Below, in pieces: positions 1,130 through 63,737 of a stretch of DNA of 64,000 nt (the first letter of the stretch is position 1; the number at the start of each line of letters is the position of its first letter). The stretch is from a virus (Duplodnaviria > Caudoviricetes). The translations under genes were made by a program, and so were the position numbers. The notes under the pieces were generated by a model, which saw nothing but the letters and a program-made list of their open reading frames with translations, ran no database searches and had not been told where the DNA came from. The DNA lies in the IMG/VR virus record IMGVR_UViG_3300021431_000003, positions 159,529-223,528 of that record; one strand, given 5' to 3'.

Positions 1130-1142
1130 AACATTGAAATAA
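1130..1142 (+). promoter_or_regulatory. Late-type promoter motif AACW-N6-TAA
   Basis: AACA-ttgaaa-TAA upstream of an RBS; first of 23 intergenic copies listed in findings. Confidence 0.75.
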
Positions 1143-1163
1143 TACTATGAAAGGAGGACTGTT

Positions 1164-2630
1164 ATGGCTTCAGCAAGAAAGTATAAGTGTCCATTTTGTA
1201 GTAAATCTTTTGAAAGATCTAAGTTAGCTAGTCATATTGATAAGTATCATGATGACATGTTAAATCCTGATAAAGGATATACTGCAAATAGAATTGTATT
1301 TGACATTTGTAATAAGAAAGAACCTATTGGTGCTGGACAGGGAGTATGTCGCATTTGTAAGAAACCTACAGAATGGGACGAAGACTCTGTACGTTATAAG
1401 TCTTATTGCTCTGAAAAATGTAAGCAACAGGCTAGAGAGAATTATAAGAATAATATGCTAAGGGTATATGGTAAAACTACTTTACTTGATGATATTGAAT
1501 GGCAAGAAAATAAGATGCTTGCCAATCGTTCTATCTCTGGTAAATATCGCTGGTCTGATGGTACATACAAAACTTATGTAGGAAGTTATGAAAAGAAGTT
1601 CCTAGAGTTTTGTGATAGCGTATTAGGTATTAAGTCTGAAGACTTATTAACTCCTGGACCCACTATCTATTATGAGTATGACGGAGAAGAGCATACTTGG
1701 ATTACTGATGCGATTTATCTGCCATATAATCTTGTATTTGATATCAAAGATGGTGGAAGTAATAAGAACAATCGTGAAATGCCAGATTATAGAGCAAAGC
1801 AATTAGAGAAAGAGAAGTTTATTACAGACCAAGGTGAGTATAATTATATTAGACTTACTAATAATGAGTTTGTTCAGCTTCTTACAATCTTTGCTGAGCT
1901 TAAAGAAAACTATATGGATAGCACAGAACCTAAGACTATCTCTAGAGTTCATGAGCATATGGGTCCAGCAGGTCCAGGCGGTATGCCAGTTGTAGGGACC
2001 GATACAAATCCAAGTGTATTCATTACCAATTATATGAATAAGAATACATTCGAATCTGGATTTGCTATTTCTAATGACGTTACTTCTGAGTATATGATTG
2101 CTAGAGATAAGAAATCTGGTAAGCTTAAGAAAGTAAAGTCTAAAGATTTGCTAGAAGATTGTGAATGTGAAACTTATAAGTATATTGGTGATAATATTTC
2201 TAATATTCTTAAAGAACTGTATTCTGTATATAAAGCTGAGGAATATGTAGACTATCATTATCTACCTTGTCTTGTTACAGAGTTTACAGAGATTTTATCA
2301 GATGACCAATTAGAATATAGTGAACTATTGGAAATGGTGAATTGGGAACAGATTCATGAGAACTTTAATAGTTCTTTAGCTACATTACAGTTCCAATCTG
2401 AAGCAATATTAGAAGGCATTAAGCCAGTCGTATTTAATGTATTAGACCCAGTTAAGTATGAGTATAAGAAAAAACTCTTGAAAGAATATGAAGACTTGAC
2501 TATTCTACAGAGCCTAAATGGAAAATACTTTGGGTATAATAAACTAACTTGTAAAAGAACTAAAGGAGTAAATAGCATATATGATATAACTGAGTGTATG
2601 CTTAACTCTATATCTACTAACTCACAATAA
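1164..2630 (+). CDS. Zn-finger plus TnsA/T4 gp4-like PD-(D/E)XK nuclease with C-terminal extension
   Basis: C2H2 finger (CPFC...H..KYH), CxxC pairs, and YVGSYEKKFLEFCD...IYYEYDGEEHTWITD...FDIKDG resembling the TnsA-like/head-completion nuclease signature. Confidence 0.6.
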   Translation: MASARKYKCPFCSKSFERSKLASHIDKYHDDMLNPDKGYTANRIVFDICNKKEPIGAGQGVCRICKKPTEWDEDSVRYKSYCSEKCKQQARENYKNNMLRVYGKTTLLDDIEWQENKMLANRSISGKYRWSDGTYKTYVGSYEKKFLEFCDSVLGIKSEDLLTPGPTIYYEYDGEEHTWITDAIYLPYNLVFDIKDGGSNKNNREMPDYRAKQLEKEKFITDQGEYNYIRLTNNEFVQLLTIFAELKENYMDSTEPKTISRVHEHMGPAGPGGMPVVGTDTNPSVFITNYMNKNTFESGFAISNDVTSEYMIARDKKSGKLKKVKSKDLLEDCECETYKYIGDNISNILKELYSVYKAEEYVDYHYLPCLVTEFTEILSDDQLEYSELLEMVNWEQIHENFNSSLATLQFQSEAILEGIKPVVFNVLDPVKYEYKKKLLKEYEDLTILQSLNGKYFGYNKLTCKRTKGVNSIYDITECMLNSISTNSQ

Positions 2631-2643
2631 GGAGGAAATAATC

Positions 2644-3153
2644 ATGAGTATGTTTAACGAGAGAGTATTCAATATTCTTCTTGAATCTAGCAAGTGTAAG
2701 AGCACTTCTAAGGAAGAGTGTGGTAACGAGTGTGCTGATTTCCAGGATACTATCGGTAACGGTCATAACTTCTCTGATGTTATTGTACCGTCTAGTGTAA
2801 AGATGAACAAGGATACTATTCCAGTTTGTCAGGTTTCTAAGAAGGAATGTGGTGCAGAGTGTAAAGAGTGCGGTGATAACTGCAATGAATCTGCATACTT
2901 TATCGACGGTAGAATGCTTGACATTTATATGGATGACAATGGTATTAACGATGATGCTCAGGCGGTATATGATATCTGTGAACATTACGGTATTAATGTA
3001 GATGATGTTTATGTCGTTGTGGAATGCGATGAAGTAAACAAGGGTCTTATTGACCATGCTAAGACATATGTAGATTGCGGTCTGCTTCGTAGATGTCATG
3101 ACCAGATTCGTAATTGTATCAATGCAGGTATTAATGTAGCTAAACGTTCTTAA
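2644..3153 (+). CDS. Cys-rich acidic hypothetical protein
   Basis: AAGGAGG RBS; internal repeat SKEECGNEC/SKKECGAEC. Confidence 0.8.
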   Translation: MSMFNERVFNILLESSKCKSTSKEECGNECADFQDTIGNGHNFSDVIVPSSVKMNKDTIPVCQVSKKECGAECKECGDNCNESAYFIDGRMLDIYMDDNGINDDAQAVYDICEHYGINVDDVYVVVECDEVNKGLIDHAKTYVDCGLLRRCHDQIRNCINAGINVAKRS

Positions 3154-3158
3154 CATAT

Positions 3159-3191
3159 GAGAGAGGGTAGGTTGATTCCTACCCTCTCTTT
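3159..3191. terminator. Intrinsic terminator
   Basis: agagagggtagg-ttgatt-cctaccctctct followed by T. Confidence 0.75.
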
Positions 3192-3229
3192 AACTTCCTT
3201 ATAATATATTATAAATGGAGGTGTTCTAA

Positions 3230-3664
3230 ATGAGTAGAACATACAGACGTCGCAAGAAGAATTATAATAATTATAATTCTAAAAAGAATACCGCACCTGT
3301 TAGTTATAAAGTGTCACAAGACCTTACTAAAGATAAGTCTCCAGAAGTTAAAAGAGATACTTCTGGTAATATTATTTATTCTTCTCAATATATAGGTGAT
3401 GAAAAATTTGAATATTGGGTAGAATATAACTCTGATAAACAACCTATTCATTATCATGATAGTAGAGGTGGAGAATGGTGGATTAAGTATAATTCTAAAG
3501 GAAATATTTCTAACTTCTGGGATAATACTGGATATGAAGAAGTATATAATTACTATAAGAATGATGTAGTAATTAGTACAGATTCTTATGGTATTCGGAT
3601 TAAAAAAATTATAGACAAAGAGCGTTGTAAGATTACACGTGATGTATTCTTAAATACACCATAA
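3230..3664 (+). CDS. Hypothetical protein with YD/MORN-like beta-hairpin repeats
   Basis: Repeats YWVEYNSDKQPIHYHDSRG / WWIKYNSKGNISNFWDNTG; GGAGG RBS. Confidence 0.7.
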   Translation: MSRTYRRRKKNYNNYNSKKNTAPVSYKVSQDLTKDKSPEVKRDTSGNIIYSSQYIGDEKFEYWVEYNSDKQPIHYHDSRGGEWWIKYNSKGNISNFWDNTGYEEVYNYYKNDVVISTDSYGIRIKKIIDKERCKITRDVFLNTP

Positions 3665-3724
3665 ATTATATATTATTTTAATGTAAGTAAGACTTACAAA
3701 TATATTTTGAAAGGAACGATATAT

Positions 3725-5141: not shown

Positions 5142-5147
5142 TATATG

Positions 5148-5182
5148 AAAAGAAACAGGACACGAGAGTCCTGTTTCTTTTT
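5148..5182. terminator. Intrinsic terminator
   Basis: aaaagaaacaggac-acgaga-gtcctgtttcttttt. Confidence 0.8.
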
Positions 5183-5223
5183 AGTGTTGAACTTTATTAT
5201 AATATATAAAGGAGGTAGTTAGT

Positions 5224-6498
5224 ATGGCTACAAATATTGTTAAAGAAGATAATTTGCTCAGAGTTAAACATCATACTACTACATTAGTATATGATGAAAC
5301 AAGAAAAGACGACCTATTATCTAAGACAGATTTAGACCTTGTAGTAGTATTTAAAGATAAAGACGGAGAATATCCTACAGGTAAAATTGTATTAAGTAAT
5401 GAATTTGTTACTAAGTACAACTATAAGTATGTAACAGATGATATTGGTAACGTGTTATCTTGTACTATTACCAAGACTGTATCTAAGAATGGTCAATCTA
5501 CTGACATCGAAAAGACTAGTACAGCATCTTTCTATGATGCTAATGGTAGAGTAATTAAGAAAGAATATTATACTCGTGATGGTATTATGTATAATCGTGA
5601 ACAATTCTGGTATTGGGAGACTGGTAAACTTAAGACAAAGAAAGTTAAGTCTACTCATGTAATCGAAACCACTGAATATAATCATGATGGTAATGTAATT
5701 CTTGTATGGGCTAAGACAATTGCAAGCAAATGTATTTCTAGAAAGTATTCTGCTACTTATAATGAAAAAGGTGAGATTGTTCATTATGTAAAGTACGGCA
5801 AAGGATATGAGTGTTTTGTAGAAAGAGACCTTGACCATGAAGGTAATCTCTTATCTATTACTGAAATCTTTAAGCATCTTAGTGATAGAAAGGTATTTGC
5901 TAAGACTACAAAAGTCTATGACCCTAATGCTGGATATAAGCTTTCTAGAGTTATCAAGAATGGTTTTGTTGTAGACCAATATTGGTATGACTTAGAAGGA
6001 CAAGTAATTAAGAACGTTAAGAGTGAAAAAGATAATGATGTAATCACTACAATCATTGAAAGAAGTACTGATACTGAAACTGGTGAAAAGACAGTTGAAA
6101 AACATATCTACTTTGTAGATAAATGTGGTAAACAACGTAGTAAGTATATTAAAGAAGTATATGATGAGAACAATAATCTTCTTACATTTGCAGAGGATAA
6201 TTCTAAGGTTACAACATATACTTATAACGAAGATGGTAAACGTGAAACTGCAATCACTAAACAGCTTATTGATGAAGAGTTTGTAGTAATTGATAAAATT
6301 ACTTATACTTATTCTACAGATGAAGAAACTGGTGAAGAAAAGAAGACTCGTGTAGAAGAGCGTTATGATGCTAAGGGAAATATCACTCATAAGCAGACTC
6401 ATACAGAATCTATTACAGACACTAAGAAAGAATATACTGTAGAGAATAGAGTATATGAAGTTCCTGAAGCTGATGATAGTAATACTACAAATCCATAA
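5224..6498 (+). CDS. YD/RHS-like repeat protein without toxin tip
   Basis: Many YDxxGxxI units (FYDANGRVI, YNEKGEIV, YDENNNLL, YNEDGKRE, YDAKGNIT). Confidence 0.65.
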   Translation: MATNIVKEDNLLRVKHHTTTLVYDETRKDDLLSKTDLDLVVVFKDKDGEYPTGKIVLSNEFVTKYNYKYVTDDIGNVLSCTITKTVSKNGQSTDIEKTSTASFYDANGRVIKKEYYTRDGIMYNREQFWYWETGKLKTKKVKSTHVIETTEYNHDGNVILVWAKTIASKCISRKYSATYNEKGEIVHYVKYGKGYECFVERDLDHEGNLLSITEIFKHLSDRKVFAKTTKVYDPNAGYKLSRVIKNGFVVDQYWYDLEGQVIKNVKSEKDNDVITTIIERSTDTETGEKTVEKHIYFVDKCGKQRSKYIKEVYDENNNLLTFAEDNSKVTTYTYNEDGKRETAITKQLIDEEFVVIDKITYTYSTDEETGEEKKTRVEERYDAKGNITHKQTHTESITDTKKEYTVENRVYEVPEADDSNTTNP

Positions 6499-6540
6499 TT
6501 GTATATTATTTAAATAGAATATTAGAAAGGAGCCGATAAA

Positions 6541-6883: not shown

Positions 6884-7570
6884 TTAAAACATAAGTCCGA
6901 ATTGACGTTGACATAACTTAGCATTATAGTATGTATATACAACTCCCATGAATGCTCTATAACAGTTCTCAATGAATTCGTATTCATCTGGATTACTGAA
7001 TGTCAATGGATACTCTCTGAAGTTTGGTTCTTCTTTATCAAACTGAAGAACTAGACATCCTTCAAGATTGATATTCTTTTTTATATAGATTAGATATCTA
7101 TATGCAGCTAACTGCATAAAGTATTTATAACCTACATGATTAGATGTCTTAAAGTCTACCATATATGGTTTGTCGTCAATACTGATGAGTAAATCGTATG
7201 TTCCTGCAAAGAACTCACCTACCATAGGTTCTTCTTGACCTAAGATTCTTACTCTATGACAATTATTAATTCCTTCCCACCATTTCTTAAATGCTTCTAA
7301 GCATACGTTAGGATGTTCTACTTTCTTTCCCTTTAAATACATCTCAATAGACTCATGTACCATTGTACCAAACTCAGCAGCTTTCATAGCAACTTCTCTA
7401 TTATCTAATCCTTGTCTACCAATTCTATTAGCCCATCCAATAAGACCTTCTGAATCAATAAAAGACAATAGTTCTGTTACACTTGGAACTCCTCTACCAT
7501 TATATGTATATCTAGCTTTTCTCTTATTAAAGACTGTTAAATCATTAAGCAATAATTCTGGGTCTAACAT
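6884..7570 (-). CDS. PD-(D/E)XK family exonuclease
   Basis: PSVTELL, GTMVHESIE, E...AGTYD...VDFKTS, QLAAY motifs. Confidence 0.85.
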   Translation of the reverse strand: MLDPELLLNDLTVFNKRKARYTYNGRGVPSVTELLSFIDSEGLIGWANRIGRQGLDNREVAMKAAEFGTMVHESIEMYLKGKKVEHPNVCLEAFKKWWEGINNCHRVRILGQEEPMVGEFFAGTYDLLISIDDKPYMVDFKTSNHVGYKYFMQLAAYRYLIYIKKNINLEGCLVLQFDKEEPNFREYPLTFSNPDEYEFIENCYRAFMGVVYTYYNAKLCQRQFGLMF

Positions 7571-7681
7571 AGTAAGAATCTACTCCCTTCATTACAATAA
7601 TTTAATAGTAAGTTGAAACATATATTATTTATGTAATGGAGAGACATACTCTCAAATCTAAATGAAAGAAGGAATCAACAC

Positions 7682-11696: not shown

Positions 11697-11733
11697 GTAA
11701 GTTGAGGTGAGTTTTACACTTACCTCAACTTAC
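11697..11733. terminator. Hairpin/terminator overlapping a late-type promoter motif
   Basis: gtaagttgaggtgagt-tttac-acttacctcaacttac; AACT-taccaa-TAA at 11727-11739. Confidence 0.65.
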
Positions 11734-11761
11734 CAATAATAATATAAAAGGAGGAATTTCC

Positions 11762-12328
11762 ATGATTGGAAATATTTCAATTGCCACTAATTTCAATGAA
11801 CTGAATTTCATCATTCAAACAAGACTTAATACAAAAGTGTCTTCATATATGAGTAACGGCATGAATGCACCTAAGTGTAAAGTTATTGTTGTAGATGATT
11901 TTTGTCCCAGTGATAACAGAGATTATGTATGTGCTTCTATCTTACTTCCCGACAGTAAGTCTATGGAGTGTCTAATCGACGGTAACTACGCTCAGTTCGA
12001 TTATTTTTATAATATGAAACTGATGAATGACCCAGATATCAAAGAATATCTTGCCGTTATTATTACTGGATTGATGGAGAGATGTTATGATTATATCTTC
12101 TATTTTGATTTCCAGAATAATACAAATATGCAACCTATTGCACAGTCTTTGATTAACTTCTTAGACAGAAATCTTGGGTTGCTGTTTTATGATGCAGCTT
12201 GTATTCAACAGAATCCACAGGTACTATTTTATCAGTCTATGAGACCTGAAGCTATGGCTGCTAATAAAATGGCTATTGATTCTTATGGTTATTCAGATAA
12301 AGCACCATCTTTGTTTCAGCAATTCTAA
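11762..12328 (+). CDS. Hypothetical protein
   Basis: GGAGG RBS; shares an FDxxYxxxL motif with the next gene. Confidence 0.8.
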   Translation: MIGNISIATNFNELNFIIQTRLNTKVSSYMSNGMNAPKCKVIVVDDFCPSDNRDYVCASILLPDSKSMECLIDGNYAQFDYFYNMKLMNDPDIKEYLAVIITGLMERCYDYIFYFDFQNNTNMQPIAQSLINFLDRNLGLLFYDAACIQQNPQVLFYQSMRPEAMAANKMAIDSYGYSDKAPSLFQQF

Positions 12329-13625: not shown

Positions 13626-13711
13626 CGAGAAACGTGCTCTTTGTAGCACGTTTCTTTTTTGTCTTAATAGTGGAACTTTAATATAAAGATTCTTGTAAAG
13701 GAGGAAACAGT

Positions 13712-17602: not shown

Positions 17603-17676
17603 TAATTTATCGTTAGAGAGACCCGTCATTTGGGTCTCTCTAACATTATATTAAAATACTAAAAGGAGGTATTTAT

Positions 17677-19326: not shown

Positions 19327-19356
19327 AAGAACAGGGACATAAAAGTCCCTGTTCTT
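19327..19356. terminator. Intrinsic terminator
   Basis: aagaacagggac-ataaaa-gtccctgttctt. Confidence 0.8.
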
Positions 19357-19413
19357 ATTCTTTGACTCGGAGAACTATTTAGTAATGACTTAATAATGTT
19401 AGGAGGTAATTGT

Positions 19414-20542: not shown

Positions 20543-20573
20543 GTATTAAAATACTATAGAAAGGAGGATATGG

Positions 20574-28289: not shown

Positions 28290-29885
28290 TTAATCTTCAC
28301 ATGCTTGACAAGCTTCAATCATAGCGTACTCTTCTTCTGTAATCTCATCGATACCAAGCTGAGTAAAGCTATTGATACAAATCATTGTATCTGTCTGTAA
28401 TGCCATGTTAGCATTAAACATACCATCATTATAACTGATTTGCATAGACAGTCTTGGATTAAACAGTCTTGCTGCATTAATCAAGAAGTCATCATTAATG
28501 ATGAGCATAATATTCAACGTATCTCCATCGAAGTCCGCACCCATCGATTTAAGAATCTCATGAGGTACACGACAGCTATAAGTGTCATCCTTAGTAACTC
28601 CAATAAGATGAAGCTGGATAATACTTGCAGGTGAGATACTAGGATTACGATTCAGAATGATTCCTACATACTGACTATCAATAATAGATTGAATCAGGTC
28701 AGCAATCATAGGATTATATTCAATTCTCGCTTCATCCCAGATACGATATGCTTCTGACGGACTATAGGTTTTTGTCAAGATATTGATGATTGTCAAACTC
28801 ATCAACTCAATCAAAGTAGAGTATGGAAGAATAATCTCATCAATTCTTAACTCTGGATCGGGAATGATTACATTACGAGCAGTAAAGTTATATCTACCAC
28901 CATTGAGTGAGCGGAAATAACCTTTCTTCTGTGCAATAATCTTTTCCAAATCAGCATAGATTTCCATAAAGTTCATCTGGATATCATAGATAAGCTGATT
29001 GGTAGGCTTCTTTCTACCACGAGAGTTAAACTCTGCTTTATTAAGCTTTGCTGCTGTACCTGCAATTACATTATACTTAGCATTATTACCCTCAAAGTTG
29101 AAGTGATTCTTCTTGATACTATAGGGTCTAAGCTGACTTGTATATACAGGTAGGCTATGTGTAAAGATGAGCTTTTTATGAGACATGATATCATCATAGA
29201 ACTCAAGCTTTGTAGGATTGTTCTTATGCTTATTTCTGAAGAATTCCATTACTTCATCAAAGCGAGCACGAAACTCTTCAAATCCTAACCCGATAAAAGG
29301 ATTATTCTTTAATGGGTCTTTCTTAATCTGAAATCCATCTTCGTCAATCTTATAATCAAGATTAATGATAGAATCCAGATTCTTCTTACCGATAAAACTA
29401 ATGAGCTTCTTAAACATATTTGGGTGAATAATAAAGTGAGGCTCATTAATCTTAATCCAACCAGTAATACTGAAGTCATTACTTACATACTTGACTTTAG
29501 TATGACAGATAGGACAAAGTAAACCATTGTTTACCTTCATTTGTGTCCTACCACATTCACACTTATAGACATCTCCAAAAGGTGTCATATCATCAATCTG
29601 TAGACCATATCTACTAGAGAAGATACTGTCCTGACTTCTGACATCTTTCTTAATATCCTGCTTCTTTGTGATTAAGAATCCAGTACCTTTAATTAAATCT
29701 TCCTCACATTCTTCATCAAGGTCGATTACCTCGATTCTAGATTCATAACGATACTTAGGACGTCCTTGTTCATCTAATGACTGATTATTAGGATAATTAC
29801 CTTTAACTTCAATCATATAGAAATTACTCAGACGTTCATACAGATAATCGTAATTCTCTGTATGAGTTACGGTTTGCTGTGACAT
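28290..29885 (-). CDS. rpoC: Multisubunit RNA polymerase beta'-like subunit, N-terminal/catalytic fragment
   Basis: Zn finger CECG...CPIC; KKGYFR...GGRYNFTARNVIIPDPEL; LNRNPSI; catalytic GADFDGD. Confidence 0.92.
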   Translation of the reverse strand: MSQQTVTHTENYDYLYERLSNFYMIEVKGNYPNNQSLDEQGRPKYRYESRIEVIDLDEECEEDLIKGTGFLITKKQDIKKDVRSQDSIFSSRYGLQIDDMTPFGDVYKCECGRTQMKVNNGLLCPICHTKVKYVSNDFSITGWIKINEPHFIIHPNMFKKLISFIGKKNLDSIINLDYKIDEDGFQIKKDPLKNNPFIGLGFEEFRARFDEVMEFFRNKHKNNPTKLEFYDDIMSHKKLIFTHSLPVYTSQLRPYSIKKNHFNFEGNNAKYNVIAGTAAKLNKAEFNSRGRKKPTNQLIYDIQMNFMEIYADLEKIIAQKKGYFRSLNGGRYNFTARNVIIPDPELRIDEIILPYSTLIELMSLTIINILTKTYSPSEAYRIWDEARIEYNPMIADLIQSIIDSQYVGIILNRNPSISPASIIQLHLIGVTKDDTYSCRVPHEILKSMGADFDGDTLNIMLIINDDFLINAARLFNPRLSMQISYNDGMFNANMALQTDTMICINSFTQLGIDEITEEEYAMIEACQACED

Positions 29886-29933
29886 ATCGGTTCCTCCTTA
29901 TACATTTATTAATGTTAAGTTATCGTCAATGTT

Positions 29934-30398: not shown

Positions 30399-30468
30399 AT
30401 ATAGATACCTCCTTAAACATATTATCATAGAGTTGCTCACTTGCCATTTTTATAATATACAGTTATCT

Positions 30469-30870: not shown

Positions 30871-31036
30871 AGTAATTCCTTCCTTTCTTGACTTAAGTCA
30901 AATAAGATTTAGACTATGTCTATTTATATTATATATAATTTTCATCAAACTTACATTAATACGTAGCAAATATGTTCTCTCATTTTTACAACCTCAACAA
31001 TTTAGTAATATCATATATACATAAGGAGGTATTTAT

Positions 31037-45014: not shown

Positions 45015-45189
45015 TATAACTCCCTCCTTCAAATATTGATTTTATATTAAAGTTCCGCTAGACAGACAAAAAAGAAGGCTGCTTGTGATGCAGCCTTCTA
45101 CTATCCCTTGTGATAGGTTTTGTGGAACTCTAATGATACAATCTACCTTGCTTACGGTAACCTTTTACCATTTGAGTTTAGTGTATTAC

Positions 45190-46830: not shown

Positions 46831-46916
46831 ATAATCACCTCCTTATATAACTGTTGGAGATTGGGTAAAATTAGGAAAAAGAAACCGCTTTTTGATAGCA
46901 GTTTCTTTTCTAGTCA

Positions 46917-47336: not shown

Positions 47337-47370
47337 AATTAGACACTCCTTTCAAATTTATTTCACTATA

Positions 47371-47403
47371 ATAATATATAACTACTATATCTGAAACTTT
47401 CAA
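47371..47403 (-). promoter_or_regulatory. Bipartite early-type promoter TTGAAA-N21-TATTAT
   Basis: Overlaps a divergent late-type motif at 47395-47407 (+). Confidence 0.7.
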
Positions 47404-47428
47404 ATAATAAATTCTAGGAGGTCTTATT

Positions 47429-48541
47429 ATGTACGTTAATCAACCACTTGTAGAGATTCATACTGCAGATATTCACTTTGGAGCAATGGACCCGAAAGTA
47501 CAATATGAACTGTTAATGGAAAGACTTGTTCATAAGATTATACCAATTCATTTTGATGCTTTCTTTATCAATGGTGACCTTTTCCATCATAAATTTATGT
47601 CTAATTCCGATGCTGTAATGTATGCATTGTTATTTGTAGATGAGATAGCTAAGTTATGCAGAAGGAATAATGCTACACTTGTATTACTTCATGGTACTTA
47701 TTCTCATGATGCAGACCAACTTAAACTATTCTATCGTTATTACGGTTCTGGTATAGATATTAGAATCGTAGAGCATATGCAATTTGAAGAGATTAAAGGT
47801 ACTAGAGTACTTTGTATTCCAGAAGAATATGGTAAAGGATATGAATACTATGAGAATGCCTTATTCTATTCTGGTGATTATGATATGGTAGCTATGCATG
47901 GTAATATCAAAGGCGCTATATATGGAATGAATCAAGCAGATTTAAATGCTACTAAGAATCCTACTTTTGATATTCGTTGTTTTCATAGATGTAATGGTCC
48001 TATCTTGTGTGGTCATGTACACGTTGCAGGTTGTTATCAGAATCATATCTATTATTCTGGTTCTCCATTAAGATGGAAGTTTGGAGAAGAACAGGATAAA
48101 GGATTTATAATTTGTGTATATCATCCTGTATCTCATCAATACTATATACACTTTGAAACTATAGAATCTTTTAGATATGATACTATCAATATGGATGATA
48201 TGTTGAAAAGTGAACCTAAAGAGATTATAGAGCATATCATGTATCTAAAATCTCAAGGTATTGATTATATAAAGATTCGATTCTCTGAAGTAAATGCTAC
48301 AACCGATGTAGTAAAACAATATTTCTCTAATAAGACTGATATCATTATTGATGTAGAAGATAGTGGTTTCAAACAGACAGTTCAAGAGAATCAAAAGAAT
48401 GATGATAAGTTTTCAGAATACAATTATATTCTGGATAATAATATGAGTCCACAAGAAATCTTTGTACAATATGTCAATCAAACTAAAGGAGAGACATTTA
48501 TAACAGTAGATGAACTTGTAGAGATTCTTGGTTCGTTATAA
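47429..48541 (+). CDS. sbcD: SbcD/Mre11-like metallophosphoesterase nuclease
   Basis: ADIHFG, GDLFH, GTYSHD, MHG, GHVH, YSGS...FGEEQDKG. Confidence 0.88.
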   Translation: MYVNQPLVEIHTADIHFGAMDPKVQYELLMERLVHKIIPIHFDAFFINGDLFHHKFMSNSDAVMYALLFVDEIAKLCRRNNATLVLLHGTYSHDADQLKLFYRYYGSGIDIRIVEHMQFEEIKGTRVLCIPEEYGKGYEYYENALFYSGDYDMVAMHGNIKGAIYGMNQADLNATKNPTFDIRCFHRCNGPILCGHVHVAGCYQNHIYYSGSPLRWKFGEEQDKGFIICVYHPVSHQYYIHFETIESFRYDTINMDDMLKSEPKEIIEHIMYLKSQGIDYIKIRFSEVNATTDVVKQYFSNKTDIIIDVEDSGFKQTVQENQKNDDKFSEYNYILDNNMSPQEIFVQYVNQTKGETFITVDELVEILGSL

Positions 48542-48675
48542 TACAAAGAGGGTGTTAATCACCCTCTTTCTTCAGCTTACGAAATAAGTACTCTGAGTGA
48601 CATTTTTTGTATTAAACTACTACTATGCAAACAATCACTTAAAGGAACTTTACGTAATAGGAGGTTGTTTGTCAA

Positions 48676-50814: not shown

Positions 50815-51242
50815 TAACTTGCGAGCGCTGATTCATTATAAGCCTTAATAAATGACTTTTCAGAAGCATTTATAGAGCTCAAGGCTTGTGCGAGTTCACT
50901 ATTCTTAATAAGTTTTAGTGTTCTTAAGTTGAAATCTTTGACAGACCACATATCATTCAACCAAAGAATGATAAAGTAAAGTTCTCCATTACCGTAAAGA
51001 TAATGAGCTAATAGCTTTGGTTTAAACCTATAAGTATAATACTCAGCTTCAGATAATGTAACCTCTTTAGCCATAGCTTTAAGCTCATTCATATAGTCTG
51101 AAACTACATTAAATACGTCATACTCTATATTATTTTGCGGGTCTTTCTCTAATAAACTCATACTATAGTATGAAACTGTATTAGACGATTTACTATCAGC
51201 AAATTGGTCTAGAGTAAACGTTTTATTAGTTTTAGTACTCAT
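50811..51242 (-). CDS. Baseplate wedge gp53/LysM-like protein
   Basis: YRFKPKLLAHYLYGNGELYFIILWLN pattern. Confidence 0.65.
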   Translation of the reverse strand: MSTKTNKTFTLDQFADSKSSNTVSYYSMSLLEKDPQNNIEYDVFNVVSDYMNELKAMAKEVTLSEAEYYTYRFKPKLLAHYLYGNGELYFIILWLNDMWSVKDFNLRTLKLIKNSELAQALSSINASEKSFIKAYNESALASY

Positions 51243-51592
51243 TCATAACACCTCCCTATTATTTGACAATTGTTTAGATTACCGCCTACAAATGCTACCA
51301 AAAATTTAGTTCCTTTAGGTATGTATTTCTTCGGGTAATCCATCATGAGATACTTAGGTATATATAAATCTATTGTAATCTCACTAGTCATTGTATAAGT
51401 AGATAACCATGTCAAGTCTTTGTTATATACATTAGACTTATTGATATTGATTGTCTGTCCAGCTTCAGTTTCAAGAGGTACTAATGCCTTTATATAAAAA
51501 GGGTGTTTAATACCTTGTTCTTCATATTTGTCTACGGTTTCATATAATATGGCTTCGTGAACAAAATTGTAATTGGAGTAGTCCTTATACAT
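51239..51592 (-). CDS. Possible baseplate hub/spike OB-fold protein
   Basis: IPKGTKFLVAFVGGNLNNCQIIG resembles gp5/gpV OB-fold end; ATGA-coupled to the gp53-like gene. Confidence 0.5.
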   Translation of the reverse strand: MYKDYSNYNFVHEAILYETVDKYEEQGIKHPFYIKALVPLETEAGQTININKSNVYNKDLTWLSTYTMTSEITIDLYIPKYLMMDYPKKYIPKGTKFLVAFVGGNLNNCQIIGRCYE

Positions 51593-51675
51593 ATTCAAAC
51601 CTCCCTCGATTTGTATATTATAAAAGTGTTACAAGGTTCAACTTGTGATAAATAAAATGTAAAGGAGCCTTAATC

Positions 51676-52182
51676 ATGGCTAAGAAAAAGGAACAGTTCG
51701 ACCCGACGCCCTATTTTGCAATGATTGACGATATTGAATATGACCTCATATTCAAACTCGAACTCGGTGTAAACAACAATATCTGTACAGAACAGGATAG
51801 CAGAACTCTTGTACAGTTAGATGGTAAACCAATCTGCTATCCGAAAGTCGCATTTAATGATTACAATATTATTAAGTTTGACCCGTTCTTTAACAGAAAG
51901 CTTGTAAACTTTCTGTTTCAGAGATATGTATATATCTATCTCAAAGAAAATCCTAATATTCAGATTAACTCGTTCTTCCTGACATCTGAGCTTATTCGTC
52001 CTAATGAAGTATTTGCTGTATGCAGAACTAATAGAGGCGATATCGTATCCAACAGCTTTACCAATGAGACAGTTTGTTGGATTGATTTGCTTTATAAGAT
52101 GGAAGGATGTCAGTATCCATATAAGGATTTCTATGCTCTCGACCAAGCTATTACTTTTATAAGAACATCGGGAGGCAAATAA
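51676..52182 (+). CDS. Hypothetical protein
   Basis: AAGGAG RBS; TATATTAT at 51614-51621. Confidence 0.8.
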   Translation: MAKKKEQFDPTPYFAMIDDIEYDLIFKLELGVNNNICTEQDSRTLVQLDGKPICYPKVAFNDYNIIKFDPFFNRKLVNFLFQRYVYIYLKENPNIQINSFFLTSELIRPNEVFAVCRTNRGDIVSNSFTNETVCWIDLLYKMEGCQYPYKDFYALDQAITFIRTSGGK

Positions 52183-53404: not shown

Positions 53405-53480
53405 AATTGGTTATATCTGTATATTATTAGTGTGATGAGTCAAATGATTCGTCATACTAATACCGTAGGAGGTAATTAAA

Positions 53481-54023
53481 ATGTCTGGATTATTTCAGCA
53501 AATCAATGGAAACATTACCCAGGAACAGGTAATGGAAATCGCGAAAACAGGAGTTGTTCCATCCAATCTTAAGTCTGTAGATGATAAAGTCTACTATATT
53601 ATCATGCGTAACTACATGACTGTGATGTATTCTAACATCGCAGGTGTTACAGATGAGTATCCAATGGAAATTGATGGTGAAGCGTTTATCATTGTTGGTA
53701 GACATAATGCATTCAATACCATCAAAGAATATCTCTCTAGAGATGGAGAGAATGGTACAGACCTCAGAAAGTCTATCGTAATGGTAGAAGGGGTCGATGC
53801 TGCTCAGGGTGTATCCCTGTATCGTTTCATTAAACTCTGTAATCAGGCTTATCCCAATGAAGCTATTGATGATGAGTTTCTTGAGAAGTCTATTCAAGGC
53901 TTTACAGATTGGGAAAATGATAAAAAGGAATTTCCTGATGATATGAAAGCCATGAATAATAATGCTGTTGCTACTGGTTTCGGTGGTAATGCAGGAACGC
54001 TTATGAATGAAGAGGAGGAATAA
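53481..54023 (+). CDS. Hypothetical protein
   Basis: AGGAGG RBS; TATATTAT 53420-53427 followed by a hairpin. Confidence 0.8.
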   Translation: MSGLFQQINGNITQEQVMEIAKTGVVPSNLKSVDDKVYYIIMRNYMTVMYSNIAGVTDEYPMEIDGEAFIIVGRHNAFNTIKEYLSRDGENGTDLRKSIVMVEGVDAAQGVSLYRFIKLCNQAYPNEAIDDEFLEKSIQGFTDWENDKKEFPDDMKAMNNNAVATGFGGNAGTLMNEEEE

Positions 54024-54488: not shown

Positions 54489-54540
54489 AAATAAAGTAAG
54501 CAACTTTCTTATAATTAACGTTATAAGGAGGTTGCTTACT

Positions 54541-55020
54541 ATGACCAAAGAACAAGTAATCAAGCTTAGGAAGGAACTTCATAAACTTCCTGGTGAAGAT
54601 AGAGAAATGAATCTTCCTATCAGAGTAATGGGACCAACGACAAACTATCAATGGGATGAAGCTACATCTTGTTTCCTTTGGGATGATGAGAATGAAATCC
54701 TATATATTGTTTGTCCTAATACAGTTCCTACTCAGACAACCGATAGCAGACTATATCCAATGTCTATTATTACATTGAATTATGAAGCTATCACGTTTAT
54801 TGAGGTAGCAGTAGATAGGTTAAGTCTTGACCACTTCTTTGAAGATAAGGTTGGTAAGGGCTTAACTAATGAAGAAACTCGTAAGAGATACTTTAAGCAG
54901 ATGACAGACCTATTTGATGAGCGTACTTATTTTATGGGTCAACCATCTCCTACTACTGAAAAGCGTGGTCTACGCCCCGATGATGAAATTGTAGACTCTA
55001 ACGCTACCAAGTTTCTTTAA
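54541..55020 (+). CDS. Hypothetical protein
   Basis: ATG after AAGGAGG; late-type motif 54502-54514. Confidence 0.8.
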   Translation: MTKEQVIKLRKELHKLPGEDREMNLPIRVMGPTTNYQWDEATSCFLWDDENEILYIVCPNTVPTQTTDSRLYPMSIITLNYEAITFIEVAVDRLSLDHFFEDKVGKGLTNEETRKRYFKQMTDLFDERTYFMGQPSPTTEKRGLRPDDEIVDSNATKFL

Positions 55021-55129
55021 TCATTTACATTTACAATAACAAAAATGTAAATGGTTATATATCATTCATGTGATTAAGAGATTAGCCATCTCTAATCTAT
55101 CAAATAATATTATTTAAGGAGGTCATCTT

Positions 55130-56065
55130 ATGATGAACAACAATGCATTTGGCTATAACAATTATTTTGGACAGCCTACAAACCCTCAGGGTTTTGCAGT
55201 CCAGTCTGGTCTCACATTTAATAATGTGACTCCTGCAAAGTCCACTTCCTCTACTCCTGAGGAGATGGAAATTATTAAGTCAAAGGGTGGTAGTAACTTC
55301 GAGTTCACCATCAATGACTCTGCAGTAGCAGGTTGGGACTATCGTGATGGTACAAATCTCTGTATTGAACTTGTCGATGCACAAACAGACAGAGTCCGTG
55401 CAAAGTGGACAGGTGAAGAGTTTAACATCACGCTTGTCGAAGATGCTGTTGTACAGAAGCTCCTTGAGATGCTCAGAGATGTTGTATCGACTACTAAGCT
55501 TCTGAATACATCTCTTGATAAGGATGTATCTAAGCAGCTGTATATCGCTGCAGGTATTCTTATGAAGCTTCTGCCTACCGCATATGCAAACGGTAGAAAG
55601 AATTATAACTCTGTAATTAACCAGGCACGTCAGCAGATTGGTGTAACTGGTTATCAGGGCGGCTTTGGTCAGAATGGCATGATGTTTGCAGGTCAGTTTG
55701 GTCAGGCACCGAATTACTTTGTAAATGATTCCAGCACGGGTCCGAATATGCCTGGCTTCATGCCCAATTACGGAGGTCAGCCTCAGGGTGGTATTGATCC
55801 TAATACTATTGCTCAGGCAGCCGCAATTCTTCAGGCAGCTCAGGCACAGCAGATGGGTACACCTACTCAGCCCAATGGTGGTACAATGATGGGTAATCCA
55901 TTCGTTCAGGGTGGACAGCCTCAGCAGGTTCCTCAGATGAACCAGCCCAGTGTACCTTTCCCTGGAACACCTCAGGCACAGACTAATCAGACTTTCAATC
56001 CTCCGATTGGACAGCCTGCAAATAGTGCTCCTGCTAATGCAACAAATGCAGCTGCACCGTTCTAA
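55130..56065 (+). CDS. Hypothetical protein with Q/G/P/N-rich low-complexity C-terminal half
   Basis: Composition of residues ~165-311; AAGGAGG RBS. Confidence 0.8.
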   Translation: MMNNNAFGYNNYFGQPTNPQGFAVQSGLTFNNVTPAKSTSSTPEEMEIIKSKGGSNFEFTINDSAVAGWDYRDGTNLCIELVDAQTDRVRAKWTGEEFNITLVEDAVVQKLLEMLRDVVSTTKLLNTSLDKDVSKQLYIAAGILMKLLPTAYANGRKNYNSVINQARQQIGVTGYQGGFGQNGMMFAGQFGQAPNYFVNDSSTGPNMPGFMPNYGGQPQGGIDPNTIAQAAAILQAAQAQQMGTPTQPNGGTMMGNPFVQGGQPQQVPQMNQPSVPFPGTPQAQTNQTFNPPIGQPANSAPANATNAAAPF

Positions 56066-58471: not shown

Positions 58472-58598
58472 TATATAGCGGGTCTTTCATAAGGACCCGT
58501 TATTTTTTTACTAACGTAATAACTTAATTGTAAATGATTTAGATGCATCGCGAGAGTATACTAAATCAAAAATTTTTATTAAAAAGGAGTAATTTCTC

Positions 58599-59132
58599 AT
58601 GGCTAAATTCAATAAGTCCAACAAGAACGATAACAACTTCAAAAAGGATGATAAGAAGACTAACTTCCAAAAGAAGAAGAAGCCTACATATGTCAAGAAA
58701 CAGATTAAAATTGCTTATACAGACTTCTATGCTGAGGCACTTGATTCTCTCTACAACATTCTTAATGAAATCAGCTGGGACAAGATTTCTATCCCTGTAA
58801 AGATGTCTAGAGCTGAGTTCCTCGGTGATAAGACAGCTAAGGGTACTATCGTTATTGGTAGTGTGTCTAAGTTCAATACCGACAATACCTTCACAGTTTC
58901 TATGACTGAAGATAATGCTAAGGTAATCACTGATAAGCATGTTATGAGTGTAAGATGTTATAAGGATTTCAATACTAATGAAATCACTTTCATCACTGAG
59001 CTTACGCTTACAAACAAGTTCGACTCTATTGATGAGCACTTCAAGGATATCGAGGAAGCTTTTACTGATGCTGCTGCAGAAGAGGTAGAAGCTGAGAATA
59101 GTGTTGCTGATGCAGAATCTGACGCTGAGTAA
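58599..59132 (+). CDS. Hypothetical protein with basic N-terminus and acidic C-terminus
   Basis: AAGGAG RBS; late-type motif 58521-58533. Confidence 0.8.
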   Translation: MAKFNKSNKNDNNFKKDDKKTNFQKKKKPTYVKKQIKIAYTDFYAEALDSLYNILNEISWDKISIPVKMSRAEFLGDKTAKGTIVIGSVSKFNTDNTFTVSMTEDNAKVITDKHVMSVRCYKDFNTNEITFITELTLTNKFDSIDEHFKDIEEAFTDAAAEEVEAENSVADAESDAE

Positions 59133-59272
59133 AACAGTTCCAAGTTTTCGTACTTTTACCTCCACCCCTCTAGGGTAACACCTAGAGGGGAAACTTTATT
59201 GTTATTATATATTATATTTATGAATAAGCTGAATAACAACAGCTTAATAAAATCATCAAGGAGGTTATTCTA

Positions 59273-61645
59273 ATGCCTGAAAAGATTATTCAAAAGAACG
59301 CATCGGAGCAGTTCCATGCAGATTATAAGGAATATGCTTTGTATGTAGAAAGACATCGTACAGTGCCAGAGTTCAGAGATGGGCTTAAGCCTGTACAAAG
59401 ACGTATTATATTTACAGCACGCTTCATTTGTGATGCAGCGGACAATAATAGAAAGTCCGCAGACATTGTAGGAAGCACAATGGGTAAATATCATCCGCAT
59501 GGTGATAGCTCTATACAAGGAGCTTTGTATACAATGGTAAATTGGTTCCAGACCAAGATTCCACTGTTTAATGGTCAGGGTAACTTTGGTAATACTTATC
59601 AGAATATCCCTGCTGCAGCTCGATATACTGAAGTAAGGTTAAGCAAGTTTACACAAGAATGTATTCTTGACGAACTGGTAAAGTGTAAAGAGATTATAGA
59701 CTGGGAACCTAATTATGATAATTCTAGATTAGAGCCCAGTTTTCTCCCGTGTAAAGTACCGCTGCTTCTCATTAATGGTTGTAACGGTATCGCAGTTGGT
59801 GACAAGGTAGATGTACCTAGTCATAATATATGTGAAGTAATTGATGCTACAATTGCATTGATTCAGAATCCTAAAACGAATATCGTACTTGTACCTGATA
59901 TGTGTCAAGCATGTGAGATTGTTGATACAGATTGGGCATCAATTTCTAAGATGGGATTTGGTAACTTCAAAGTCAGAGGTGTCGTTGACATTGAACCTTA
60001 CAATGGCGTAGAACGTAAGTATCGTGAGTACCAGACACTTGTAATTAAGTCTGTTCCTAATCTTACTTTTCTTGAGACTGTAATCGACAAGCTTGAAAAT
60101 ATGGTTAAAGAGAATAAGATTACTGGTATTATTGATATGGAAGAACAGTCTTCTGAAAATAATATGAGATTCGTATTGATTCTCAAACCAGGTACAGACC
60201 CTAACTATGTTCGTAATGAACTGTATAAGAATACAGCACTTATGCAGACCATGAGAACAAATCTTAAAGTACTGGATATCAATGATAAAGAACATCCTGC
60301 AAAAAGATTATCTTATAAAGGATATCTTCAAGCATGGATTGACTTTAGAAAGTTGACTAAGTTTAGATACTTTGAAAATACACTTCAGAAAAAGATGACT
60401 CGTCTTCATATGATTCAGCTTTATATCTGGGCTATTGAATCTGGTAAGTCTGATGAGATTATTAAGATTATCAAATCCAATAAGACTACAGATGATTCTG
60501 TTATCATTGAGGCACTTATTAAGAAGTGTAACATGACAGACATTCAAGCTAAGTTCTTTATCAATTGCGAAATAAAGAAGCTTTCTAAGGGTTATCTTGC
60601 AAATTATAAAGCAGAACAGGATAAACTTGTAAAAGAAACTAATTATTATCGTGATTGCATTGTTCATGATGGTGCTATTGAAAGTATCATCATTCAGGAA
60701 CTGCTTGATATTAAAGCAAAATACGGTGAGCCTAGAAAGTGCAGACTCATCAGTGAGACAGAAGCTAATGGAGTTACTGCTGGTACATTCAAGGTTGTAT
60801 TGACTGAAAATAACTTCATTAAGAAGATTGGAGAAAATGAAACACTTACTAAACCTAAGAATGATGTAATTAAGTTTGTTCTTACAGGTGATAATAGTAA
60901 GAGTATTCTATTATTCGACAATCTTGGTAAGGTCTATAATATTCCAATCTCTAAGATTCCATTTGCAGATAAGAATAGTAATGGTGTTGATATCAGACTT
61001 ATCAATAAGTATATCAACTCTCAGATTACTGCAGTTATTTATGAGCCTATTTTGGAACAGTTCAAGAAGGGATTCATTGTAACACTTACTCAGCAAGGAT
61101 TTATTAAGAGAATGACGACAACAGATTTCTTAGCTGTACCAACATCTGGTCTTGTATATTGCAAACTCGATGACAATGACAAAATCATTGACCTGTTACT
61201 GTTTGGTAATAATGCAGAGATTGTAGTGTATGGTTCTAAGAAAGCATTAAGAATTGACATTAATGATATTCCGATCCTTAAGCGTAATGCTAGAGGGTGC
61301 GTATCTATGTCCTCTAAGACAACTAACGTAGAAGGAATGTCAGCAATGAATAAACAGTTCTCAGATATCGTTATTGTAACTAAGAATGGTTATGTTAATA
61401 GAATTATTCCAGATTCTGTTATCAAAGGACGTTCTAAAGCAGGTAGTAATGTTATTAAACTTGGAAAGACTGATAATATTGTTTCTATCTATGGAGTTAA
61501 TAATAATGATACACTAGTATGCCTGATTGCCCCTACTGGAGAAGCCATTGAAATTCCTGTTGCAACGATTGCTAATGGTACTAGCATTAGTACTGGTAAC
61601 AAGATGATTAAGGGTGGAGAGGTAGTTAAGGTATACAAAAAGTAA
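59273..61645 (+). CDS. gyrA: Type IIA topoisomerase subunit A
   Basis: DGLKPVQRRI, YHPHGDSS, GQGNFG, AAARYTE (catalytic Tyr), beta-pinwheel CTD repeats. Confidence 0.95.
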   Translation: MPEKIIQKNASEQFHADYKEYALYVERHRTVPEFRDGLKPVQRRIIFTARFICDAADNNRKSADIVGSTMGKYHPHGDSSIQGALYTMVNWFQTKIPLFNGQGNFGNTYQNIPAAARYTEVRLSKFTQECILDELVKCKEIIDWEPNYDNSRLEPSFLPCKVPLLLINGCNGIAVGDKVDVPSHNICEVIDATIALIQNPKTNIVLVPDMCQACEIVDTDWASISKMGFGNFKVRGVVDIEPYNGVERKYREYQTLVIKSVPNLTFLETVIDKLENMVKENKITGIIDMEEQSSENNMRFVLILKPGTDPNYVRNELYKNTALMQTMRTNLKVLDINDKEHPAKRLSYKGYLQAWIDFRKLTKFRYFENTLQKKMTRLHMIQLYIWAIESGKSDEIIKIIKSNKTTDDSVIIEALIKKCNMTDIQAKFFINCEIKKLSKGYLANYKAEQDKLVKETNYYRDCIVHDGAIESIIIQELLDIKAKYGEPRKCRLISETEANGVTAGTFKVVLTENNFIKKIGENETLTKPKNDVIKFVLTGDNSKSILLFDNLGKVYNIPISKIPFADKNSNGVDIRLINKYINSQITAVIYEPILEQFKKGFIVTLTQQGFIKRMTTTDFLAVPTSGLVYCKLDDNDKIIDLLLFGNNAEIVVYGSKKALRIDINDIPILKRNARGCVSMSSKTTNVEGMSAMNKQFSDIVIVTKNGYVNRIIPDSVIKGRSKAGSNVIKLGKTDNIVSIYGVNNNDTLVCLIAPTGEAIEIPVATIANGTSISTGNKMIKGGEVVKVYKK

Positions 61646-61664
61646 AAAGAAAAGAGGAATCGAT

Positions 61665-62452: not shown

Positions 62453-62561
62453 TTTTCTAAAATGGGGAAATTGTACAATCCATTACCAAAAAGTGGTAAT
62501 GTACAATTTTCCCATTTATAAATATTATTTTTTACAATCAATATAACTAATTAATAATGAT

Positions 62562-62637
62562 TAGGGTGTCGCCAAGCGGTAAGGCCGAAGCCTTTGAAGC
62601 TTCCATTTCGTGGGTTCGAATCCCTCCACCCTAACCA
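62562..62637 (+). tRNA. trnQ: tRNA-Gln(TTG)
   Basis: Acceptor TAGGGTG/CACCCTA, anticodon arm GAAGC-CTTTGAA-GCTTC, TTCGAAT loop, encoded CCA. Confidence 0.92.
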
Positions 62638-62648
62638 GTTTTATATAC

Positions 62649-62722
62649 AGGCCACTAGCGCAAATGGTAAGAGCTCTCGGCTCATAACCGAAAGGTTCAG
62701 GGTTCAAGTCCCTGGTGGCCTA
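62649..62722 (+). tRNA. tRNA with CAT anticodon (elongator Met or Ile2)
   Basis: Acceptor AGGCCAC/GTGGCCT, anticodon loop CTCATAA, TTCAAGT loop; no CCA; no initiator hallmarks. Confidence 0.88.
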
Positions 62723-62811
62723 TCCGCTGTTCTGCTTTAAATGGAGTAGAACAGCTTTCTTCACTTTTTCGGCTTGAGACATTTTTCTTAGTTTTGGTGT
62801 CTCTTTGCAAA

Positions 62812-62851
62812 AGAACAGCTCCCAGGGTCTCCATGCCCTGGGAGCTGTTCT
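62812..62851. terminator. Bidirectional terminator
   Basis: agaacagctcccaggg-tctccatg-ccctgggagctgttct between convergent units. Confidence 0.8.
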
Positions 62852-62854
62852 GCT

Positions 62855-63622
62855 TTATAGATTTTCTGGATGCATTATAGCCGAACCTGCAAATGTACCT
62901 TGAGGTTTATCAGCTTCTTTAATATCAAATAGTCTTTGCTTTAACATACTCTGTAATTCATGCAGCTTCTCAAATTGATTATTGCCTTCCATATCAATAG
63001 TAATATACTTCTTTTCAAGCACTTGTTTATATGTATCATTATATGTACCAGCAATAGTAAGCTTTTCTAATTCATCTAGCTTATCTAATAATTCTGGGTC
63101 AATATAATTATAATATGTCTGAACAAATGCTTTATAGTATCCATATACTTTATTTGTAGGAACAAACAGATATTGAGTATGTACTAACTCATGTACTGTT
63201 TCAGATAAAGGAATAAGTCCAACCATTAGAGAATAGTGTACAAACATTACTTCATATCCGACAGATTCAATGGTTAGCATTTCACCATTCTTCATTCTTT
63301 TATTTAAGATAACACAACAGATATCTCTTAGAGTAAATGGAGAGTGATGTATTTCGATTCTAACTCTTCTACTAGTCTCATTACTAATATTAGGAATAAA
63401 AGCACAAGAGTTCATATTCATATACTCTCTAAGATATTGAACCATTTGGCGATATTCAAAAGAAGAACGAACATGACGCTCTAAATCAACAATATACTTT
63501 TCTCTATCTTTATCATCCATCAAATCATAATCTTCAAATTCAAAATCTGGTACATTCTCTGGAATCTTAATTACATCAACTTCATTTACAGGGATACTCA
63601 TCATAGAATTCTCACTAATCAT
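62855..63622 (-). CDS. HNH-like protein, paralog of 19414-20163
   Basis: CAFIPNIS...IEIHHSPFTLRD...LSETVHELVH; ATG after AAGGAGG. Confidence 0.65.
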   Translation of the reverse strand: MISENSMMSIPVNEVDVIKIPENVPDFEFEDYDLMDDKDREKYIVDLERHVRSSFEYRQMVQYLREYMNMNSCAFIPNISNETSRRVRIEIHHSPFTLRDICCVILNKRMKNGEMLTIESVGYEVMFVHYSLMVGLIPLSETVHELVHTQYLFVPTNKVYGYYKAFVQTYYNYIDPELLDKLDELEKLTIAGTYNDTYKQVLEKKYITIDMEGNNQFEKLHELQSMLKQRLFDIKEADKPQGTFAGSAIMHPENL

Positions 63623-63737
63623 ACGTATCAACCTCCTTTATTATATGAATGTTAAAGAACGCAATACGTATGTTTTTTACTAAACCAGAAACATATTTAT
63701 AAACGAGTAGTCTCAGACTGCTTAAGGAGGTATGTAT

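Follow-up and report, generated by a model that had tools for sequence, protein, structure and literature searches.

The closest described system is the transcription apparatus of the Bacillus phage AR9. Its early promoter, used by the virion RNA polymerase (vRNAP), is AAATATATATTAT-N6-G (PMC5312081). The late promoter of AR9 and PBS1 is A(-11)ACA-N6-T-A/G(+1) (PMC5312081, PMC7598289), with transcription starting at the A or G after the T (PMC5312081), and it is read by a five-subunit nonvirion RNA polymerase (nvRNAP) that includes gp226 (PMC5312081, PMC5449584, PMC9209446). This enzyme needs template-strand uracils at -11 and -10, and V206 of gp226 excludes thymine (PMC9209446). AR9 genes termed continuously expressed carry both early and late signals (PMC5312081). 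The phage phiKZ has a different late promoter, T(-3)ATG(+1) (PMC7598289, PMC7618050). Here, we analyze a 13-base motif, AACW-N6-TAA (the L motif), in the final 64 kb of a 223,528-bp IMG/VR virus record that has direct terminal repeats and 33% G+C. This 64,000-nucleotide stretch is referred to as the window and is numbered separately; coordinates on the whole record are marked G000. A preliminary description of the window had noted the motif at 23 sites and proposed that it is an AR9-type late promoter with A or T at its fourth position, read by a homologous nvRNAP on DNA that may carry uracil. Using motif statistics, placement, conservation, and enzyme homology, we conclude, by analogy with AR9, that the L motif, which stands before most genes of this giant phage, very probably tells the RNA polymerase encoded by the phage itself where to begin transcription.

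All 23 noted sites are present, 16 on the plus and 7 on the minus strand, and downstream of each, on the same strand, lies either a tRNA or an AGGAGG-like Shine-Dalgarno sequence with a start codon (Table 1). The L-motif count across the whole window is not above chance (45 matches versus 50.4 ± 6.8 in shuffles). Twenty-nine of the 45 matches lie within 6,153 intergenic bases (9.6% of the window), giving a density of ~4.7 per kb in intergenic versus 0.28 per kb in coding DNA. In the whole genome, intergenic DNA makes up 9.2% of the sequence and contains 87 of the 146 matches (4.22 versus 0.29 per kb). When the intergenic segments of the genome alone were shuffled 300 times with dinucleotides preserved, 15.6 ± 3.8 matches were expected (maximum, 29) and 83 were found. 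Plain k-mer enrichment of intergenic DNA was also tried and was dropped because the Shine-Dalgarno sequence swamped the signal.

Next, we examined which positions of the motif are constrained. The six-base spacer is strict, with 83 intergenic matches versus 8 to 20 for other spacers from 3 to 9, and swapping any base of AAC cuts the intergenic count from 83 to between 4 and 33. The relaxed fourth position (-8, numbered as in AR9) was correctly read in the preliminary description, as A occurs there 48 times, T 35, G 8, and C 4; inspection by eye revealed no pattern in the A-versus-T split by gene class. The T and A after the spacer are specific as well, and G at +1 is found in only 6 sites. In a position matrix, the base before TAA is a purine (A 53, G 23, T 11, and C 0) and the base after it is A or T, which yields a full consensus of AAC-W-N5-R-TAA-W. 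Two intergenic matches in the window look like chance, one at 19330 within a terminator hairpin and one at 32260 on the minus strand that is directed into a gene end, and four further likely sites lie beyond the noted 23 (Table 1).

The placement of the motif bears on what kind of signal it is. A same-strand start codon lies within 150 nt of 75 of the 87 intergenic sites, at a median distance of 27 nt, and within 80 nt of 68 of them. This fairly constant distance, together with the many sites between same-strand genes, would also suit an RNA-level signal at the 5' end of cistrons (a processing site, leader stabilizer, or translational element) rather than a promoter. We consider this reading very unlikely, because the motif also precedes tRNAs, which lack a ribosome-binding site, heads divergent units that have no upstream transcript, and matches the biochemically defined promoter of a homologous enzyme. 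Furthermore, a run of at least 5 Ts is found within 30 nt upstream of 30 of the 87 sites and is often the end of a terminator hairpin, so that a new start would be needed there. Inside genes, the motif is depleted relative to codon-order shuffles both on the sense strand (45 versus 64.0 ± 7.3) and, most strongly, on the antisense strand (12 versus 52.8 ± 7.3), and other spacers have no such depletion. This pattern fits the avoidance of stray initiation rather than an mRNA signal.

Sixteen coding matches lie at window positions 2542 to 59741, and genic matches genome-wide are mostly sense (45 versus 12 antisense). Of the late promoters of AR9, 13 are internal and 7 give rise to antisense transcripts. 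Therefore, some of the genic matches could be real internal starts.

To follow the motif through evolution, we used 67 loci of related IMG/VR jumbo phages whose gp226-like proteins span 31 to 98% identity. The L motif is kept before orthologues of the gp165-like virion, gp112-like virion, baseplate, and vRNAP beta' genes, and this retention reaches down to ~30% protein identity. At orthologous sites, AAC, W, and TAA are fixed while spacer bases, flanks, and terminator hairpins diverge, and both the A and the T form are seen at -8. In the intergenic DNA of the 67 loci, spacers of six bases generally outnumber those of five or seven.

Four L motifs end 1 to 10 nt upstream of mature tRNA 5' ends, which fits a start within TAA and not a sigma-70 start. 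A sigma-70 or sigma-A promoter has a -35 box (TTGACA), 17 ± 1 bp, and a -10 box (TATAAT) with A at its second position. If the host RNA polymerase transcribed these units from such a promoter, R-TAA-W would be a degenerate -10 box; A at position 10 and T at position 14 do give ATAAT, and at 9 of the 87 sites TTTACW starts exactly 14 nt upstream of AAC, in a TTTACA-N16-TATAAA-like arrangement. Nevertheless, a host promoter is very unlikely. The invariant AAC would fall in the spacer, for which sigma-70 sets no requirement, 22 of 83 sites have G where the second base of the -10 box would be, and ~90% of the sites are without a -35 element. A start ~7 nt past the -10 box would fall inside three of the four tRNAs near L motifs. 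The phage also has genes for two complete RNA polymerases of its own, and transcription in AR9-type phages does not depend on the host enzyme (PMC5312081). An extracytoplasmic function (ECF) sigma reading, with AAC as the -35 element, was rejected because AAC and TAA are 7 nt apart and not 16 to 17. The nine TTTACW elements, at about -25 to -20 from the presumed start, belong to the sites at G000 9245, 24020, 33045 (minus strand), 42024, and 132521 (minus strand) and at window 11727, 58521, 62545, and 63690, which include both tRNA-operon promoters; these elements could represent either overlapping -35 boxes of the host type or accessory upstream elements.

We then asked whether the phage has the enzyme that the motif would call for. 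No GenBank phage matched when 20 kb of the window was searched by megablast, and kinship with AR9 is visible only at the protein level. In PHROG scans, the window's large proteins matched two families of the phiKZ/AR9 type annotated as "RNA polymerase beta subunit," as well as an endolysin, topoisomerase II subunits, and helicases resembling DnaB and Dda. In tblastn of all predicted proteins against AR9 (KU878088), we found 49 homologues at 23 to 39% identity; by this protein resemblance, the phage is a distant relative of AR9. Among them are homologues of all four nvRNAP core subunits (gp089, gp105, gp154, and gp270) and of all four vRNAP subunits (gp078, gp145, gp189, and gp264). The gp226-like specificity subunit, sought genome-wide, is encoded at G000 130082-131662 and is adjoined by homologues of the AR9 neighbors gp225 and gp227. 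With all five AR9 holoenzyme subunits represented (tblastn E values of 1e-16 to 3e-77), the earlier claim of a homologous nvRNAP is supported. The five genes occupy G000 13682-15934, 19961-21682, 85267-87480, 187818-189413, and 130082-131662. The gp226-like family comprises 627 metagenomic protein clusters, and the sole match of its profile in the PDB is AR9 gp226 (7S01_A, E 2e-25, almost end to end). An AlphaFold model of the protein (pLDDT 84) likewise has 7S01_A as its top Foldseek match (E 3e-15), with phiKZ gp68 second (8QUE_B, E 2e-5).

A second motif separates the gene classes. This E motif, TATATTAT-W-W3-GTG, is of the TATATTAT-N6-G type, which is the core of the AR9 early promoter (~10 conserved AT-rich bases, then N6-G), and it agrees with the promoters annotated in the AR9 record. 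There are ~25 oriented intergenic copies, 30 to 70 nt upstream of genes, including the nvRNAP beta-C, beta'-C, and gp226-like genes, and the whole clade has kept the copy in front of the gp226-like gene. The opposite orientation of this AT-rich motif was rejected because it pointed antisense into genes; reversed, the motif is the AR9 early consensus and has genes downstream. For 20 of 20 homologues of AR9 virion or structural genes, the nearest upstream signal is an L motif, and 18 have the L motif alone. Promoters with only the E motif are confined to an early class of replication and nvRNAP genes, namely, those of nvRNAP beta-C (with a ligase gene behind), the gp226-like protein (with a primase gene downstream), and a RecD-like helicase. 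The nvRNAP beta'-C gene carries both motifs. Because the L motif also precedes DnaB-, SbcD-, and DNA polymerase-like genes, it is best described as a general nonearly promoter. Thus, the promoter behavior and the AR9 correspondence in the preliminary description stand, whereas its label "late" covers too little.

The preliminary description had also raised the possibility of uracil DNA, for which it expected no thymidylate synthase and no dUTPase and pointed to an inhibitor of uracil-DNA glycosylase (UDG) and a deaminase as genes to look for. In that case, an AR9-type promoter would lie on a deoxyuridine (dU) genome, and the polymerase would need template uracils opposite the two leading As. 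The consensus and an enzyme set homologous to that of AR9 favor such a genome. However, the phage encodes ThyX, a thymidylate synthase, at G000 36946-38109, outside the window (387 amino acids, 116 bits). Its RHR...SQRY motif, and the arginine and histidine motifs that follow, can be aligned with ThyX of T. maritima and appear intact. Among 28 near-complete relatives, ThyX occurs in 20 and ThyA in 5 of the other 8, a complementary distribution that covers 25 of 28, whereas AR9, run as a control, has neither. No homologues of AR9 Ugi, dCMP deaminase, or deoxyribonucleotidase (gp104, gp221, and gp151) were found in the genome at E ≤ 0.1, although other small-inhibitor families are too diverse to exclude in this way, and the PF00383 (dCMP deaminase) profile had no match in the genome. 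ThyA, dUTPase, UDG, and thymidylate kinase were not found in the genome either. This agrees with the expectation for dUTPase, and it leaves ThyX as the only positive marker for thymine. The lack of dUTPase, thymidylate kinase, and UDG would also suit a dU genome, as would the 3 of 28 relatives that have no thymidylate synthase. Given these opposing points, we consider a dU genome unlikely, and the suggested uracil DNA is not supported. Because a thymine-making gene is present, AR9-type uracil DNA is probably absent, and we are fairly confident that the DNA contains thymine or a thymine-derived base.

The Thy1 domain of ThyX is split by an insertion of ~120 amino acids between profile positions ~104 and ~58-186, and the same split match is seen in 20 related phages. 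The relatives with neither ThyX nor ThyA are L037, L041, and L081 (records G008, G010, and G028), which are at or near full length; among the clade members, these are the ones for which the case against dU or another base is weakest.

We also compared residues that bear on uracil or thymine specificity in AR9. The valine at gp226 position 206, absolutely conserved in dU phages (PMC9209446) and kept by close AR9 relatives, is replaced here by isoleucine; in gp226 of dU phages, it belongs with Y210 to a conserved 2.1bis helix. However, this column is hypervariable in the clade (I/T/L/G/S/Q/D/P/V) and the alignment is at 23% identity, and the V206 test therefore argues neither way. Y210 is not retained in the clade, and W208 is invariant. 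In the beta-N pocket, a pairwise alignment at 24% identity places K opposite K375 and N opposite R363.

Taken together, these results make it probable that AAC-W-N5-R-TAA-W is the promoter of the phage's five-subunit nvRNAP, on thymine DNA, with the E motif read by the vRNAP. Which polymerase uses the motif, where transcription starts, that the template strand is recognized, and which bases make up the DNA are all inferred. The injected vRNAP would read TATATTAT-N6-G as an early promoter and so switch on the nvRNAP genes, including that for the gp226-like protein. The nvRNAP, with split beta and beta' subunits and the gp226-like protein as a sigma-like specificity subunit, would then read the L motif. 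By AR9 analogy, AACW would lie at -11 to -8 and T at -1, with the start at the first A of TAA, and leaders of ~25 to 35 nt would hold only the ribosome-binding site. The L motif would thus drive nearly all nonearly units, that is, the virion, vRNAP, and many replication genes and the tRNAs. Since the DNA is most likely thymine DNA, the polymerase probably reads an AR9-type signal without template-strand uracils.

Several points weigh against this account. The assignment of the enzyme to the motif is an analogy with AR9, drawn at 23 to 32% subunit identity, and the uncultured phage is known here from sequence alone. Replication genes and one nvRNAP gene (beta'-N) have the L motif upstream as well, so it does not delimit a clean late class. 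About 1 in 10 sites have TTTACW at a fixed distance upstream, and this hexamer and the ATAAT-like part could make up a sigma-A-like promoter of the host. For the thymine part, ThyX bears on the base only indirectly, the missing dUTPase, thymidylate kinase, and UDG and the 3 of 28 relatives without ThyX and ThyA count against it, and small uracil-glycosylase inhibitors are too diverse for homology to exclude them. The isoleucine at the V206 position also has a C-beta and argues neither way.

Table 1. L and E motifs and RNA polymerase genes of the window ("new" marks likely L sites beyond the 23 of the preliminary description)
Feature	Position	Strand	Context
L motif	1130..1142	+	22 nt before gene 1164-2630 (endonuclease, AR9 gp233-like)
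L motif	3192..3204	+	directly 3' of terminator hairpin; then gene 3230-3664
L motif	5190..5202	+	terminator upstream; gene 5224-6498 downstream
L motif	7602..7614	-	before gene 6884-7570(-)
L motif	11727..11739	+	before gene 11762-12328; TTTACA 14 nt upstream of AAC
L motif	13674..13686	+	terminator upstream; then 1296-aa gene 13712-17602
L motif	17642..17654	+	terminator upstream; then endolysin gene 17677-19320
L motif	19373..19385	+	before gene 19414-20163, then 1574-aa virion protein gene
nvRNAP beta' N-terminal subunit, AR9 gp270 homologue	28290..29885	-	phrog_2987 E 7e-60; tblastn E 2e-31
L motif	29909..29921	-	24 nt before nvRNAP beta'-N gene
L motif (new)	30422..30434	-	before gene 29934-30398(-)
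E motif (TATATTATA), candidate early vRNAP promoter	30451..30459	-	heads operon ending in nvRNAP beta'-N gene
L motif (AACAATTTAGTAA; sequence recurs at several genome sites)	30996..31008	+	before vRNAP subunit gene
vRNAP subunit, AR9 gp264 homologue	31037..32251	+	phrog_2962 E 6e-62; tblastn E 4e-65
L motif	32310..32322	+	before gene 32347-33051
L motif	33529..33541	+	before gene 33582-34109
L motif	36260..36272	-	terminator upstream; gene 35389-36213(-) downstream
L motif	45042..45054	-	terminator upstream; virion-protein operon: AR9 gp281-like gene 44079-45014, then 1397-aa gene
L motif	46843..46855	-	13 nt before gene 46036-46830(-)
E motif (TATATTATT-ata-GTG)	47370..47378	-	before gene 46917-47336(-); back to back with L motif 47395
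L motif	47395..47407	+	before SbcD-like gene 47429-48541
L motif	48630..48642	+	before DnaB-like helicase gene 48676-50814
E motif (TATATTATA-aaa-GTG)	51614..51622	+	before gene 51676-52182 and RecD/Dda-like helicase gene
L motif	51618..51630	-	before gene 51239-51592(-); complement overlaps E motif 51614-51622(+)
E motif (TATATTATT-a-GTGTG)	53420..53428	+	before gene 53481-54023
L motif	54502..54514	+	before gene 54541-55020
L motif (new)	55038..55050	+	80 nt before gene 55130-56065; gyrB-like gene next
L motif	58521..58533	+	terminator upstream; 66-nt leader, gene 58599-59132; TTTACT 14 nt upstream
E-like motif (TATATTATA)	59208..59216	+	before gyrA-like gene
Two overlapping L matches, 59235-59247 and 59238-59250 (new)	59235..59250	+	23-26 nt before gyrA-like gene 59273-61645
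L motif	62545..62557	+	TAA ends 4 nt before mature tRNA-Gln (62562-62637); tRNA-Met next
L motif	63641..63653	-	before gene 62855-63622(-)
L motif	63690..63702	+	before gene 63738-63926; TTTACT 14 nt upstream

Two places in the window have E and L motifs as compact divergent promoter pairs, either back to back (47370-47407) or with one overlapping the reverse complement of the other (51614-51630). Three very large genes, 13712-17602 (1296 amino acids), 20574-25298 (1574 amino acids), and 39889-44082 (1397 amino acids), have few or no family matches; all are in L-headed units, and a match to a virion protein (AR9 gp260-like) exists only for the product of 1574 amino acids. Outside the window, a 4,626-amino-acid open reading frame at G000 68338-82218 (minus strand) weakly matches gp204, the tape-measure protein of AR9, and has an L motif upstream.

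The clade to which this phage belongs includes the 627 gp226-like clusters and dozens of genomes of 200 to 265 kb. In a literature search, AR9-type promoters outside dU phages were not found described. On balance, we think that a large clade of uncultured gut and rumen jumbo phages uses the AR9 code (AACW-N6-TA and TATATTAT-N6-G) on ordinary thymine DNA. If so, the AR9 uracil requirement would be a derived specialization. To our knowledge, no multisubunit RNA polymerase other than the AR9 nvRNAP recognizes its promoter in the template strand with a requirement for uracil in that strand. The gp226-like subunits of the clade would be natural thymine-accepting variants from which to learn how uracil specificity arose, and how a 13-base signal keeps the polymerase off host DNA without a uracil mark would become a question. 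Because the code is visible from the bases themselves and is conserved in the clade, hundreds of jumbo-phage genomes from metagenomes can be annotated down to their promoters.

Compared with phiKZ and its gp68-containing nvRNAP, the phage described here has the same enzyme architecture; phiKZ, too, has thymine DNA and encodes its own enzymes. However, the phiKZ promoter sequence is unrelated, and the specificity subunit here is much closer in structure to gp226 than to gp68. The AR9 early promoter shares with the E motif the core TATATTAT followed by N6-G and the position before the nvRNAP genes and the gp226 homologue, since gp226 of AR9 likewise has an early promoter. It differs in that TG or TTG here replaces the upstream AAA and the downstream part reads W3-GTG-A. 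With the AR9 late promoter, the L motif shares the AAC block, a spacer of six bases, the TA where transcription presumably starts, and the location before virion and vRNAP genes; both phages have homologous sets of five nvRNAP subunits and some units with early and late signals together. In contrast to AR9, this phage has ThyX and no recognizable dU toolkit, and V206 of gp226 is not conserved. Position -8 is A or T here (48 versus 35), whereas AACT-N6-TA is not enriched in AR9. Statistics by themselves reveal the motif much more clearly here (83 versus 16) than in AR9, in whose genome intergenic AACA-N6-TA is only mildly enriched (89 versus 28 to 54 for other spacers). The L motif also has constraints that AR9 lacks, namely, R at -2 (never C), A at +2, and W at +3, with G at +1 rare; in AR9's own genome, -2 is A 37, T 39, G 2, and C 3, and +2 has no single preferred base. 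Thus, the L motif is a longer, more informative variant of the AR9 signal, and its added bases (R at -2, A at +2, and W at +3) may, if the clade's DNA is thymine DNA, compensate for the discrimination that uracil gives AR9.

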